DNA of 64,000 nt from a virus, in the UHGV virus genome UHGV-0060833; one strand, written 5' to 3'. The notes beneath the pieces are model-generated. The model searched no databases, was not told where the DNA came from, and worked only from the letters and a program-made list of their open reading frames with translations. The position numbers and the translations under genes are program-made. Position 1 is the first letter of the stretch; the number at the start of each line of letters is the position of its first letter. Shown here in pieces: positions 9,834 through 12,999 of the stretch.

Positions 9834-10445
9834 TCAAAGAGAAAAGCTAAAGCCCAGAAGGGAAGCCAAAGAACTTGAGGATTGGTTAAACGTGCTGTGC
9901 AATGCGAAGGTCATTGGGAATGACTTAAATTCAGTAACCTGATCTCGCGCATAGGTGACATCGCCGGTAGTGACCGGGAATACCGTCATCTCATTTTCCA
10001 GTTTGGTTAAGCCGGAAGACAGCAACCGATAAATACGCACATTGAGCAAATATTTAGACGGTATATTCCCGGTACCGTCCGGATTGATCACCCGACTTTT
10101 TGCCGTCTTAAACCAGTCCAAAACGAGGCCATCAACGGTATCCCTGACCATCATTGTTATCTGCCCAGGCGAACGCTCCGTTGGTTGAAGGATATTCCCT
10201 CCGCCGATTTTAATCGTTTCATATTCGATGCTGTAATCGTGGTAGGTAATATCTTTGGCAAAGAAGTCTGCCCCCTCCAGTCCATCAACTTCGACAGAGA
10301 ACTGCCATCCTTGCGCGAACAGCATTTTGTTCATGATGATTGACGTCAGCTTACCAACTTCCCGTTCACCAACGCCGGAGCCAAATAATGTCGTCGTTAA
10401 TGCCGAAGATACATAAGACTTTACTGAAGCAACATTAAACCCCAT
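9834..10445 (-). CDS. Hypothetical structural protein
   Basis: 203-aa ORF, tightly packed in the late operon. Confidence 0.5.
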   Translation of the reverse strand: MGFNVASVKSYVSSALTTTLFGSGVGEREVGKLTSIIMNKMLFAQGWQFSVEVDGLEGADFFAKDITYHDYSIEYETIKIGGGNILQPTERSPGQITMMVRDTVDGLVLDWFKTAKSRVINPDGTGNIPSKYLLNVRIYRLLSSGLTKLENEMTVFPVTTGDVTYARDQVTEFKSFPMTFALHSTFNQSSSSLASLLGFSFSL

Positions 10446-10455
10446 ATCAGCCCTC

Positions 10456-11046
<591 letters not shown>

Positions 11047-11102
11047 TTAACAGATTCTACGAGTTGTCATTTGTGACAGTATGCTCGCAATCGTAGTGAT
11101 TA

Positions 11103-11642
11103 CTACCACCAACTGCTAGCTTTCTTCTCTCTAGCTTTTCCTTCGCTTTGCAGTAAATCTTTACTTCCTGTAGAAATATTTCTATTTGCATCAGCCTCAG
11201 ACTGAATTACATCTGTCTTAGCTGCTCTCTCCTTCAACTCCTGCTCTATAAAATCGTTTTCTCGCTGGACACGAGCCGCTTTTGCTTGCAGTTCGAGTTT
11301 CATGCTTTCGAGTTGCAGCTTGCGAAGCTCATCCTCATAAGCTTGATCTCGCTTCTTGTCATTTGCTAGCTCGGCTTCTCGTTTCGCTCTACGTTCATTT
11401 TCTGCAGCAACACGCTGTTTTTCGCGTGCAGCAGCGGCAGATGCTGCTTTTTCTCTTCTAATACGTTCAGCTTGTGCTTGTTGGCGAATAAGTTCTTTTC
11501 TGGCATCCTCAGCTTGCTGCTCTTTAGCTCGCCCTTCATTTTCCGCTTGAGCAATAGCAGCAATTTGACTTTGCAACGAGTTAGCCAAGGCAGTGCCTAC
11601 ACTAAACGTAGAAAAGATTAGAAATAAAATAATTTTATTCAT
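11103..11642 (-). CDS. Secreted coiled-coil protein (signal peptide plus Ala/Glu/Arg/Lys-rich helix)
   Basis: 179 aa; N-terminus MNKIILFLIFSTFSVGTALA resembles a signal peptide; rest is highly charged and helical; AT-rich codon usage. Confidence 0.55.
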   Translation of the reverse strand: MNKIILFLIFSTFSVGTALANSLQSQIAAIAQAENEGRAKEQQAEDARKELIRQQAQAERIRREKAASAAAAREKQRVAAENERRAKREAELANDKKRDQAYEDELRKLQLESMKLELQAKAARVQRENDFIEQELKERAAKTDVIQSEADANRNISTGSKDLLQSEGKAREKKASSWW

Positions 11643-11645
11643 AAA

Positions 11646-12167
11646 TTATTTCTTTTCTGGACAAGTAGCATTTGGCTGAATTCGAGTTTCATTATCTTTA
11701 GTTGAAATAAGCACAGCAAGCCCCGTTGTAAACTGGCATGCTTTACCAACTTGAGTTGAAGTGAACACCTTAGTTCCTTCTTTATAAGTCAGTGAAACAC
11801 CTTCAACAATTGTTTTATCACTAACCAAAGAACCAGCCGCTGCACCAAGAGCCGCACCACCAGTACCGCCAGCTACAGCACCCAGTGTCGATGTGCCTTT
11901 AACATTATAACCGGCAACGCCCCCAGCAACAGCTCCCAGTACCGCACCAAATGTCTGTGCCGCTTCTTTATTAGCTTTATTATCAACTTTCACTTTAGCT
12001 GGAAGCACAGAGATAATATTGACTGTCTTTGTTTCCTGCTTCGAATTCAATTGAGCGGTATCATAAACATCGGCAGCATAATCAGCACCGCTAGATTGAC
12101 ACCCAGAAAGAAGAATTGCAGATACAACAAGAGCGCATAAAGTATACTTTTTAGACATAAGAATCAT
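11646..12167 (-). CDS. Lipoprotein with glycine-zipper segments
   Basis: 173 aa; lipobox LLSGC; GAVLGAVAGGVAG / GAVAGGTGGAALGAAAG glycine-zipper stretches; 3-nt gap to the downstream gene. Confidence 0.55.
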   Translation of the reverse strand: MILMSKKYTLCALVVSAILLSGCQSSGADYAADVYDTAQLNSKQETKTVNIISVLPAKVKVDNKANKEAAQTFGAVLGAVAGGVAGYNVKGTSTLGAVAGGTGGAALGAAAGSLVSDKTIVEGVSLTYKEGTKVFTSTQVGKACQFTTGLAVLISTKDNETRIQPNATCPEKK

Positions 12168-12448
12168 CCCAGAAAAACAAAAACCGGCGAGAAGTTACCA
12201 CGAGAACGGAAAGTAAACAAGAATACTCCCATTGACTTATATCAATTAATCAACTTTTTATAAGCTATCCCTAACTTATTGTGTATAGCTGAAAAGTCAG
12301 AGACAAGTTCACCATCTGCATTATTTCTTAAGTTAATAGTTTATTGCTAACTTAATTTATGTATCGACTATTGATATCCATCTTAAAGTTACAATATCCA
12401 TCTGCATTATTTTTCATCACAAATAATATATCTATTGCACGACACTAA

Positions 12449-12465
12449 TCTGCTCTAATAAATTT
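12449..12465 (+). promoter_or_regulatory. C1 repressor operator-like site (immunity-I region, Op51-like)
   Basis: tctgctctaataaattt matches ATTGCTCTAATAAATTT at 15/17; lies upstream of the c4/icd/ant region. Confidence 0.65.
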
Positions 12466-12644
12466 GTATTTTTAAGTCGCGAATGCTATCTTTTTGCATC
12501 ATATTGACCTTTTAATCGTTCAGGCTTATAGTTTCGCCGTCGTAGCAAATTCTGCGACCGGGTTTAGCAGCCTGAATACTTACGCGGACAACCGCAGATT
12601 TCCGATATTGCGGTATTTTTGTGTCCGTAAACCACGTTACGCCC

Positions 12645-12725
12645 GAATTATGGTGGGGCGTGATGGGGAGGCTTCGGCCTGCTGGTTTCGTAAGTGCCAG
12701 TCTGCTAACCCCGTCACGTCCTGCC
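12645..12725 (+). ncRNA. c4: c4-like antisense repressor RNA (approximate bounds)
   Basis: Non-coding stretch upstream of icd with a UUCG-loop hairpin (gaggcttcggcctg). Motif ctgctaaccc (12693-12703) is complementary to gtttagcag at 12563-12571 and 12733-12741; cggcct (12673-12678) is complementary to the icd ribosome-binding region aggccg (~12766). Confidence 0.4.
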
Positions 12726-12777
12726 ACCTGTTTAGCAGCGGGTCGCAGGTTGTTTATCAACTTACGAGGCCGTAACT

Positions 12778-12999
12778 ATGGTTAATGCCAATCCTTGCGC
12801 ACGCCAAGAATTCATCTGGCGTTTCTATTCCTGCAAAAAACACCACTATCACTTCGTCATCGCAGCAACAGAAGACGAAGCACGCTCTCAATTGCCTGAT
12901 GGCCCCTGCATTTTTACTGCCCGTTTTTCAACTAACTCGCGCAATTCACTTAGTTACTGGAACCTCCCCTTCTCTGCCGACGTTCAGGGGGTTTTATGA
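12778..12999 (+). CDS. icd: Icd-like small protein
   Basis: 73-aa ORF immediately upstream of and overlapping (ATGA) the antirepressor gene; matches the P1 icd-ant arrangement. Confidence 0.7.
   Translation: MVNANPCARQEFIWRFYSCKKHHYHFVIAATEDEARSQLPDGPCIFTARFSTNSRNSLSYWNLPFSADVQGVL

Follow-up and report, generated by a model that had tools for sequence, protein, structure and literature searches.

Two adjacent genes at the immunity border of a P7-type, P1-like phage-plasmid are, by sequence, paralogues of the core Escherichia coli operon yfgH-yfgI. They occupy the slot that P1 fills with simA-simB-simC. We read them as a mobile, anciently diverged copy of yfgH-yfgI that could serve as a lysogenic-conversion module remodelling or stabilising the cell envelope, an explanation that we prefer and to which we give an even chance. 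The pair lies in a 64,000-nucleotide stretch of UHGV virus genome UHGV-0060833 (the window, in whose coordinates all positions are given), which is 97.9% identical in nucleotide sequence to P7 across the region. In P7 the two genes are upf50.5 (the lipoprotein) and upf50.0 (its partner), to which the P7 annotation assigns no function. The features of the locus are as follows.

11054..11072, minus strand: LPsit, late promoter of the pmgC-tub-sit operon, directly downstream of the pair (gap-free alignment to annotated P1 and P7).
11075..12450, no strand: exchangeable cassette that replaces P1 simA-simB-simC (blastn against P1; P1 and P7 annotation).
11103..11642, minus strand: upf50.0-type gene for a predicted Sec-exported periplasmic DUF5384 (YfgI-like) protein forming one long charged helix (Pfam, AlphaFold).
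11646..12167, minus strand: upf50.5-type gene for a predicted outer-membrane lipoprotein of the YfgH/SlyB family (ORF, identity to P7, profile, Foldseek).
12168..12450, minus strand: AT-rich upstream region, part of the cassette, with presumed promoter and regulatory sites (33-35% GC).
12232-12245: palindrome TTGATATAAGTCAA in the upstream region.
12312-12326 and 12398-12412: two copies of a 15-nt direct repeat in the upstream region.
12434..12406, minus strand: weak sigma-70-like site (9/12 match).
12449..12465, plus strand: Op(c4), C1 repressor operator and right-hand border of the cassette, sequence TCTGCTCTAATAAATTT (P7/P1 annotation transferred by alignment).

Blastn against P1 aligned only window positions 10400-11074 and 12451-12900, with homology stopping at about 11075 and restarting at 12451. 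In P1, the interval from LPsit to the c4 operator is annotated as simA-simB-simC; the pair replaces simABC exactly, with the late promoter LPsit on one side and the C1 operator of c4 on the other. The adjoining immunity locus comprises the C4 RNA (12646-12731) and the a1b1 targets (12526-12578), then icd, ant1 and kilA, and the first-pass annotation had correctly placed both minus-strand ORFs, with their coordinates, beside it. Its description of the genes as AT-rich holds moderately for the coding sequences (42-43.5% GC against 47.4% for the window) and strongly for the upstream spacer. P1-like plasmids are already known to have eight variable, low-GC regions, and this is one of them (PMC9603915).

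The lipoprotein ORF encodes 173 amino acids; a start at the second ATG (12158) would give 170, and this is probably the true start, since RefSeq uses it for an identical copy on a plasmid and the family alignment agrees. The protein is 100% identical to P7 Upf50.5. As had been noticed from the sequence, it combines a lipobox (L-S-G-C after a hydrophobic N-terminus, LLSG preceding Cys23) with a glycine zipper, here a run of overlapping small-xxx-small motifs over residues 70-112. Gln follows Cys23, and under the Lol sorting rule Gln at +2 directs a lipoprotein to the outer membrane; we therefore infer that this one is sorted there. A profile of the YfgH family searched against PDB sequences found SlyB (7ojf/7ojg, E = 1.2e-9, positions 9-163 against 6-154), and Foldseek with the lipoprotein model likewise gave SlyB as its best match (7ojf_A, E = 1e-6, TM 0.50/0.59). 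The model has the order beta, helix-helix, beta, with helices at 64-88 and 94-113; as it is of low confidence (pLDDT 57.7), the fold assignment leans mainly on the sequence profile. Single-sequence searches of PDB sequences returned nothing useful for the lipoprotein or its partner, and Pfam glycine-zipper families matched the lipoprotein below their cut-offs only. The protein has a SlyB-type architecture, in which the lipidated Cys is followed by a short beta segment, a helical hairpin with the glycine zipper and, at the C-terminus, a beta domain. PHROG labels its family (phrog_1277) 'DNA methyltransferase', a mis-annotation for a SlyB-family lipoprotein.

E. coli SlyB (PDB 7OJF, 7OJG) is homologous to the phage lipoprotein over the full length and is likewise lipidated, with a small beta domain after its glycine-zipper hairpin, but identity is only about 25% and slyB has no DUF5384 partner gene. 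Within the family alignment, C23, C144, C169 and an NETRIQPN motif are invariant (Cys23 in 52 family members), and the phage protein retains all family-invariant residues. The two cysteines and the NETRIQPN motif of the C-terminal domain mark the YfgH family as against SlyB.

The partner ORF encodes 179 amino acids. It begins with a signal peptide of the cleavable type, MNKIILFLIFSTFSVGTALA, which has an AXA site and ends in ALA before the N of the following NS. The mature part has 159 residues, 41% of them charged. The protein matches Pfam DUF5384 (PF17358) with E = 3e-43 and 147.8 bits against a cut-off of 25, over profile positions 4-145 of 145; a profile of the partner found no match among PDB sequences. 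AlphaFold models a single continuous helix over residues 3-178 (pLDDT 86.8). The first-pass annotation had called it a secreted coiled-coil protein. The signal peptide and the charged helix stand, and both products are envelope proteins as claimed, one with a lipoprotein signal peptide and the other with a Sec-type one; the coiled coil holds only in part, a heptad-type hydrophobic pattern being confined to about residues 91-125.

Both ORFs are real genes rather than chance ORFs, as judged from Pfam, PHROG, dN/dS and their spacing. Only 3 nt separate the lipoprotein stop from the partner ATG, and translation of the partner is probably coupled to that of the lipoprotein. The two proteins match PHROG families with E = 2e-83 and 2e-94. 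In 76 of 79 species-representative DUF5384 loci a YfgH-like ORF lies directly upstream on the same strand. Between diverged alleles in the same slot of P1-like backbones, dN/dS is 0.04-0.12 and pS about 0.6-0.8, and PmgC beside one such allele has a few substitutions among its 188 residues. These substitution patterns indicate strong purifying selection on the pair, with synonymous sites near saturation. Every locus that was read or translated has the pair intact.

Nearly every E. coli already carries a related operon: a copy of about 69% nucleotide identity was found in 5420 of 5426 complete genomes, and the 25 places among the matches listed all carry the annotation yfgH or yfgHI. In the one chromosome inspected, guaA and yfgG flank the copy. 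E. coli YfgH and YfgI are colinear with the phage proteins at 67% and 47% amino-acid identity, and the two loci agree in gene order, orientation and near-equal protein lengths (172 and 179 amino acids in the chromosomal pair), as well as in the lipobox, the glycine zipper, the cysteine pair and the C-terminal half of DUF5384. They differ in location, the phage pair being on a phage-plasmid; in GC content, which is 47-49% for chromosomal yfgH-yfgI and lower in the phage pair; and in the N-terminal half of the partner, which has strongly diverged from YfgI (pN 0.47). In a simple neighbour-joining tree, built without bootstrap, the phage pair joins other mobile copies, not the Escherichia chromosomal clade.

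Those mobile copies are found in several backgrounds. Diverged copies of the pair occupy this slot in P1-like plasmids of E. albertii and E. coli, and others lie at the end of a P2-tail-type prophage that is inserted at two chromosomal sites, in a Salmonella prophage and, to judge from neighbouring genes, probably in an SSU5-like phage-plasmid. A tail-fibre-assembly-like gene adjoins it in two prophage types. Matches in IMG/VR (66-69% identity) were set aside as host flank rather than cargo, since they lie at the extreme ends of prophage contigs, with the identity expected of chromosomal yfgH; the match in phage TL-2011b was read likewise.

Across 506 P1-like plasmids the slot held the pair in about 188, sim in about 140 and a third cassette in about 82 and, in diverged form, about 100. 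The pair is in about a third of them, many from clinical or animal isolates. The first-pass annotation had placed a P1 sim function near this location, and P1 indeed holds simA-simB-simC at exactly this position, on the same strand and between the same borders, with signal peptides on all products. The sim cassette nevertheless differs in gene number and sizes and is more AT-rich (33% GC), and the pair is not the sim genes themselves: BLASTP against SimA, SimB and SimC gave a best E of 0.07, over 30 residues. The third cassette (gp35 and gp34 of phage vB_EcoM-Ro157c2YLVW) shares the slot, the orientation and the coding of two exported proteins; its sequences, compared by reading alone, bear no resemblance to the pair. 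Its first protein (215 amino acids) starts with the sequence of P1 SimA, from which we take P1 SimA to be a truncated remnant of that protein. The P1 slot alternates among three unrelated cassettes, all of which encode exported, signal-peptide proteins.

The upstream region is part of the cassette. Four alleles, although close to synonymous saturation in their coding regions, all retain its palindrome at -77 to -89 from the ATG; upstream of chromosomal yfgH it matches weakly (8/10) and at a different distance. A promoter search of the region found the 9/12 site as the sole sigma-70-like match on the right strand, with matches as numerous as expected from shuffled sequence, and a conserved TTGAYA element had no spacing to a -10 that fits a standard promoter. 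An FNR-type box is conserved in position in the four alleles. The window shows no enrichment of such boxes, and a match of at least 9/10 arises in about 5% of shuffled 400-nt spacers; we give it as a side observation only. The pair would be transcribed from this AT-rich region of its own and not from the late promoter.

What such a module would do is suggested by the host proteins. YfgH has been described as an outer-membrane stabilising lipoprotein with AlphaFold3-predicted SlyB-like rings (bioRxiv 10.64898/2025.12.22.696046); its deletion causes SDS/EDTA sensitivity, and its overexpression rescues knockdowns of outer-membrane biogenesis (bioRxiv 10.64898/2025.12.22.696046; PMC3219608). By analogy, the hairpin of the phage lipoprotein would insert in the outer membrane and the protein may oligomerise into rings like those of SlyB, enclosing lipids and outer-membrane proteins in the manner suggested for YfgH of the host, with the helical partner presumably working alongside it in the periplasm. 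If the pair is transcribed from its own upstream region, the lysogen would have, beside the host's own, a divergent YfgHI system for remodelling or stabilising its outer membrane (a 'moron' function), and any effects on incoming phages would follow from this remodelling. Because almost all E. coli hosts possess yfgHI already, a benefit from more of the same is not obvious; it is plausible that the phage puts the same scaffold to a different use of its own. The location in the sim slot counts against the envelope-module explanation and points towards exclusion.

Superinfection exclusion, which the first-pass annotation had proposed, would make the pair a functional replacement of Sim: its lipoprotein rings and periplasmic helix would stop incoming phages after they adsorb but before their DNA has entered, or would mask outer-membrane receptors. 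We regard this as possible but the less probable course. It draws on the exact occupation of the sim slot, on the signal peptides shared by all three alternative cassettes, on carriage by several temperate phage lineages, on the adjoining tail-fibre-assembly-like gene in two prophage types and, in one of these, on the prophage-end position, a typical place for exclusion or conversion genes. The mature partner helix would also be about 24 nm long if straight, roughly the width of the periplasm. Pfam, besides, finds a weak likeness of the lipoprotein to TraT, which acts in exclusion, but this is below threshold and absent from the family profile and the fold comparison, and neither protein resembles Sim. 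Selection is purifying, not diversifying, and the closest homologue that has been characterised is a housekeeping factor for envelope integrity. P1 plates on P7 lysogens, and sim is known to show a phenotype only from multicopy clones; both points weigh against exclusion. PADLOC-DB 2.0 returned no family for either protein at E up to 1, and in the parts of the Mutalik 2020 supplementary tables consulted, read without assigned columns, the host paralogues yfgH and yfgI have small scores only, which is incomplete evidence. The stronger proposal, that phage YfgH/YfgI form an unrecognised class of envelope-level exclusion systems, in which a ring and a helix of about 24 nm obstruct genome delivery or enclose receptors and which are swapped with Sim and the third cassette at a dedicated slot, we consider unlikely. 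A literature search found nothing on upf50 or DUF5384, on phage SlyB-like exclusion or on P7 exclusion.

TraT of F-like plasmids (PDB 9FS5, 9FSM, 9E2V) is also a mobile-element outer-membrane lipoprotein with a helical membrane-inserted segment. Membership of its family was rejected: PF05818 scored 23.1 bits (residues 59-145, E = 7e-5), below the gathering score of 31, the family profile did not match, and Foldseek gave E = 0.5-1 with TM of about 0.2-0.3. A TraT/Bor-type conversion factor, by which lysogens resist complement, bile, colicins or antimicrobial peptides with no general housekeeping role, would suit the outer-membrane lipoprotein architecture, the carriage of the pair by phage-plasmids from clinical and animal isolates and the behaviour of the S. 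Typhi yfgHI-type locus srgIL, which is induced by SdiA and AHL with other horizontally acquired surface factors (PMC11619404). We think it improbable as a separate reading, since it overlaps the envelope-module explanation and differs only in the relevant stress. Still less probable is a neutral passenger, a captured host operon of no benefit to the phage: a host-operon copy in a known variable, low-GC region (PMC9603915) would fit, but near-saturated synonymous sites at a dN/dS of 0.04-0.12, intactness wherever the pair was read or translated, and presence both in other temperate phage lineages, several in number, and in about one P1-like plasmid in three do not. We give least credence, very little indeed, to a lysis accessory resembling a two-component spanin, in which an outer-membrane lipoprotein and a periplasmic helix disrupt the outer membrane at lysis. 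The architecture is superficially alike, the pair lies directly upstream of the late operon with no terminator-like site found between it and LPsit by a terminator scan, and PHROG gives very weak matches, to Rz-like spanin and to Cor (E 0.02-0.04; spanin E 0.038). These matches were discounted, being limited to the N-terminal third with the signal peptide included. The partner has an AXA signal-peptidase site and not a membrane anchor, the lipoprotein is a 150-residue SlyB-type protein and not a short spanin, homologues occur in nearly every E. coli genome, and the location is the immunity border, outside the lysis cassette. The pair is, moreover, interchangeable with sim, whose genes P1 does not need to form plaques (PMC10695390). 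Clear homology to structural or lysis proteins, which the first-pass annotation had named as evidence against exclusion, was not found.

Without a phenotype, the pair would be an ordinary accessory cassette of a known family. Should it have one, this would give a function to a module that roughly one in three P1-like plasmids of the collection carries, and to DUF5384/YfgI as well. It would also give a purpose to the variable sim slot, which appears to hold exported proteins only, and, with diverged alleles beside the host copy, would provide a natural gain-of-function handle on YfgH/SlyB-type lipoproteins.

Two minus-strand ORFs fill the interval that the first-pass annotation had proposed as a candidate superinfection-exclusion pair, and the immunity region it described next door is indeed there, with C4 RNA and its a1b1 targets, and with icd, ant1 and kilA next in the locus. 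The features of the region are:

11103-11642, minus strand, partner gene (upf50.0-type), 179 aa, starting 3 nt beyond the lipoprotein gene stop
11646-12167, minus strand, lipoprotein gene (upf50.5-type), 173 aa, N-terminus MILMSKKYTLCALVVSAILLSGC
12232-12245, minus strand, palindrome TTGAY-N4-RTCAA, here TTGATATAAGTCAA
12312-12326 and 12398-12412, 15-nt exact direct repeat CCATCTGCATTATTT in the AT-rich spacer, copies 86 nt apart
12374 and 12394, 10-nt repeat ATATCCATCT in the AT-rich spacer
12526-12578, a1b1 targets of C4 RNA
12646-12731, C4 RNA

The lipoprotein has a hydrophobic signal segment, then a lipobox (L-S-G-C, with Gln at +2), overlapping small-xxx-small motifs downstream at aa 70-112, and two cysteines in its C-terminal part. 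Translation is likelier to start at the second ATG (12158), given GGGA 8 nt before it, the RefSeq choice on an identical plasmid copy and the fit to the family alignment. A profile built from 52 relatives gave a full-length match to SlyB (E 1.2e-9). AlphaFold models the lipoprotein with low confidence (pLDDT 57.7), but the secondary structure of the model is consistent with the SlyB plan, and its sole significant PDB match in fold comparison was SlyB (7ojf_A, E 1e-6). TraT was rejected: its Pfam match was sub-threshold, profile search gave no confirmation and fold comparison returned E 0.5-1. The label 'DNA methyltransferase' of phrog_1277 looks wrong for the product of 11646-12167, as do the names 'minor tail protein' and 'tail tip protein' used for the pair in phage phi456. 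The methyltransferase label is also on the lipoprotein in RefSeq phage records NC_050152, NC_031129, NC_042128 and NC_019445 (OR339795 listed alongside).

The partner, a DUF5384 protein (Pfam, E 3e-43), has a signal peptide (MNKIILFLIFSTFSVGTALA, ending before NS) and a mature part of 159 residues, 41% charged and 19% alanine, which AlphaFold predicts with good confidence (pLDDT 86.8) as a single unbroken helix, about 24 nm long if fully extended. The earlier description as a coiled coil fits the protein only in part, since a heptad pattern is confined to aa 91-125 or so; the C-terminal half is conserved and residues 41-95 are variable.

Both genes have chromosomal counterparts in the host. 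A sensitive DNA search found a copy about 69% identical in 5420 of 5426 complete E. coli genomes, annotated yfgH or yfgHI in 25 of 25 among the matches listed, and a near-identical copy in 182 genomes, mostly plasmid-borne. In the one chromosome examined, the counterpart is the operon yfgH-yfgI, flanked by guaA and yfgG. Protein identity is 67% to YfgH and 47% to YfgI, full-length and colinear, with gene order kept. The two genes form a module: among 79 loci from different species that encode a DUF5384 protein, 76 have a YfgH-like ORF immediately upstream in the same orientation. Host YfgH acts in outer-membrane integrity: cells lacking it become sensitive to detergent and EDTA and lose outer-membrane proteins under stress, its overexpression rescues outer-membrane biogenesis knockdowns, and AlphaFold3 predicts SlyB-like rings for it (bioRxiv 10.64898/2025.12.22.696046); its genetic interactions with lptD are aggravating (PMC3219608). 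A yfgHI-type locus of S. Typhi is induced by SdiA plus AHL (PMC11619404).

Over this region, identity to P7 and to further P7-type members of Punavirus is 97.9-99.6%. Homology to P1 ends at 11074 and restarts at 12451; in P1 the same interval, with the late promoter LPsit on one side and the C1 operator of c4 on the other, carries simA, simB and simC in the same orientation. The first-pass placing of sim near this location was therefore exactly right as to position. Alignment to SimA, SimB and SimC gave no similarity (best E 0.07), and the pair is not sim. The P1 sim genes are not needed for plaque formation (PMC10695390). A comparative study (PMC9603915) counts simABC among eight low-GC regions that vary between P1-like plasmids; its available passages do not describe what takes the place of simABC. 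Here the GC content of the two genes is 42% and 43.5%, against 47.4% for the window. With PmgC at at least 95% identity as the marker of a P1-like backbone (506 plasmids), the collection held the lipoprotein (at least 80%) in 188 plasmids, SimC (at least 95%) in 140 and a protein of a third cassette (at least 90%) in 82, with diverged versions of the latter in about 100.

The third cassette, found in phage vB_EcoM-Ro157c2YLVW, encodes two signal-peptide proteins. The first (215 aa; L099 1710-2357) begins with the exact sequence of the 52-aa P1 SimA (L002 4459-4617), so SimA looks like a truncated remnant of the longer protein, left by an older cassette exchange. SimA, SimB and SimC all have signal-peptide-like segments at their N-termini. 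Since such segments or signal peptides occur in all three cassettes, the slot seems reserved for exported proteins, which is the best argument for cargo acting at the envelope to the phage's benefit. Cargo can be composite: an E. albertii P1-like plasmid (L005 7175-9298) has the pair, then third-cassette fragments (one of 118 aa, and a YfjT-like ORF of 137 aa without signal peptide), then a protein of 394 aa that matches SH3_3 weakly.

Diverged alleles occupy the sim slot of E. albertii (88% aa identity) and E. coli (83%) P1-like plasmids. Others lie in a Salmonella prophage, adjoining a tail-fibre-assembly-like gene; in a contig of about 102 kb from Salmonella with a Rep3-type replication gene, a helicase and small ORFs, whose size and gene content suggest an SSU5-like phage-plasmid; in a 115-kb Enterobacter contig with small ORFs; and in a chromosomal island rich in insertion sequences. 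The pair also moves with a P2-tail-type prophage, as it is present at the prophage end at two chromosomal sites, beside torT and beside aspS/yecD. At the torT site, in E. coli, it adjoins a gene for a PLD-domain protein (ORF of 479 aa, gene call of 424 aa; L010 4104-5543) that may be a further accessory or defence gene. In a simple neighbour-joining tree without bootstrap, P1-like, P2-tail-prophage and Salmonella-prophage copies group together, outside the Escherichia chromosomal clade. Dozens of IMG/VR prophage contigs (L032-L093) match the lipoprotein in their first or last few hundred bases, at 66-69% aa identity, the level of chromosomal yfgH, as does phage TL-2011b; this suggests an integration site often used beside yfgHI, or over-wide prophage boundaries.

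Between P1-like alleles, pS is near saturation (0.63-0.77), dN/dS is 0.04-0.12 and change is free only in the signal peptides; PmgC of the E. albertii allele's backbone differs at a handful of 188 residues. Judged by these sequences, the alleles are old and entered one and the same slot of P1-like backbones by recombination, with function retained, and it is unlikely that the pair is a neutral passenger. The spacer upstream has a GC content of 33-35%. In four alleles with coding regions near synonymous saturation (window, L098, L005, L007), the palindrome keeps a constant distance from the lipoprotein gene, -77 to -89 from the start codon. It is perfect in L098 (TTGAT-N4-ATCAA, the FNR consensus) and could be a CRP/FNR-family regulator site or part of a promoter; boxes of this type are not enriched across the whole window. 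An Rfam isrK match (12539-12620, plus strand) scores 47.9 bits, slightly below the gathering threshold of 50; it overlaps the c4 a1b1 targets, which lie upstream of C4 RNA.

We rank first, at about an even chance, a conversion function that remodels or stabilizes the envelope, on the basis of the sole characterized homologue and because every residue invariant in the family is retained. The pair would be expressed from the cassette's own upstream region, and the lipoprotein, sorted to the outer membrane, would form rings and cooperate with the partner to remodel or stabilize the lysogen's envelope. Superinfection exclusion, ranked second, is possible but doubtful: slot equivalence with sim and moron-like positions favour it, but a defence-database search (PADLOC) gave no match, selection is purifying rather than diversifying and, as weak and incomplete evidence from the accessible part of a genome-wide phage-resistance screen, host yfgH and yfgI score unremarkably. 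Envelope remodelling is compatible with exclusion, as a SlyB-type ring enclosing outer-membrane proteins could serve both. That these two exported proteins instead act in lysis, in the manner of spanins, is unlikely.

Both genes were already known from P7, whose annotation calls upf50.5 an 'outer membrane lipoprotein of unknown function' and upf50.0 a 'membrane protein of unknown function' and notes similarity of both to E. coli K-12 proteins; our literature search found no mention of upf50 or DUF5384. Assignment to the YfgH/SlyB and DUF5384 families is ordinary, and the findings on the pair do not show a new kind of system. What appears undescribed is that several lineages of temperate phages carry this one module, kept under strong constraint, that the sim slot alternates among three exported-protein cassettes, and that SimA would be the remnant of a longer protein.
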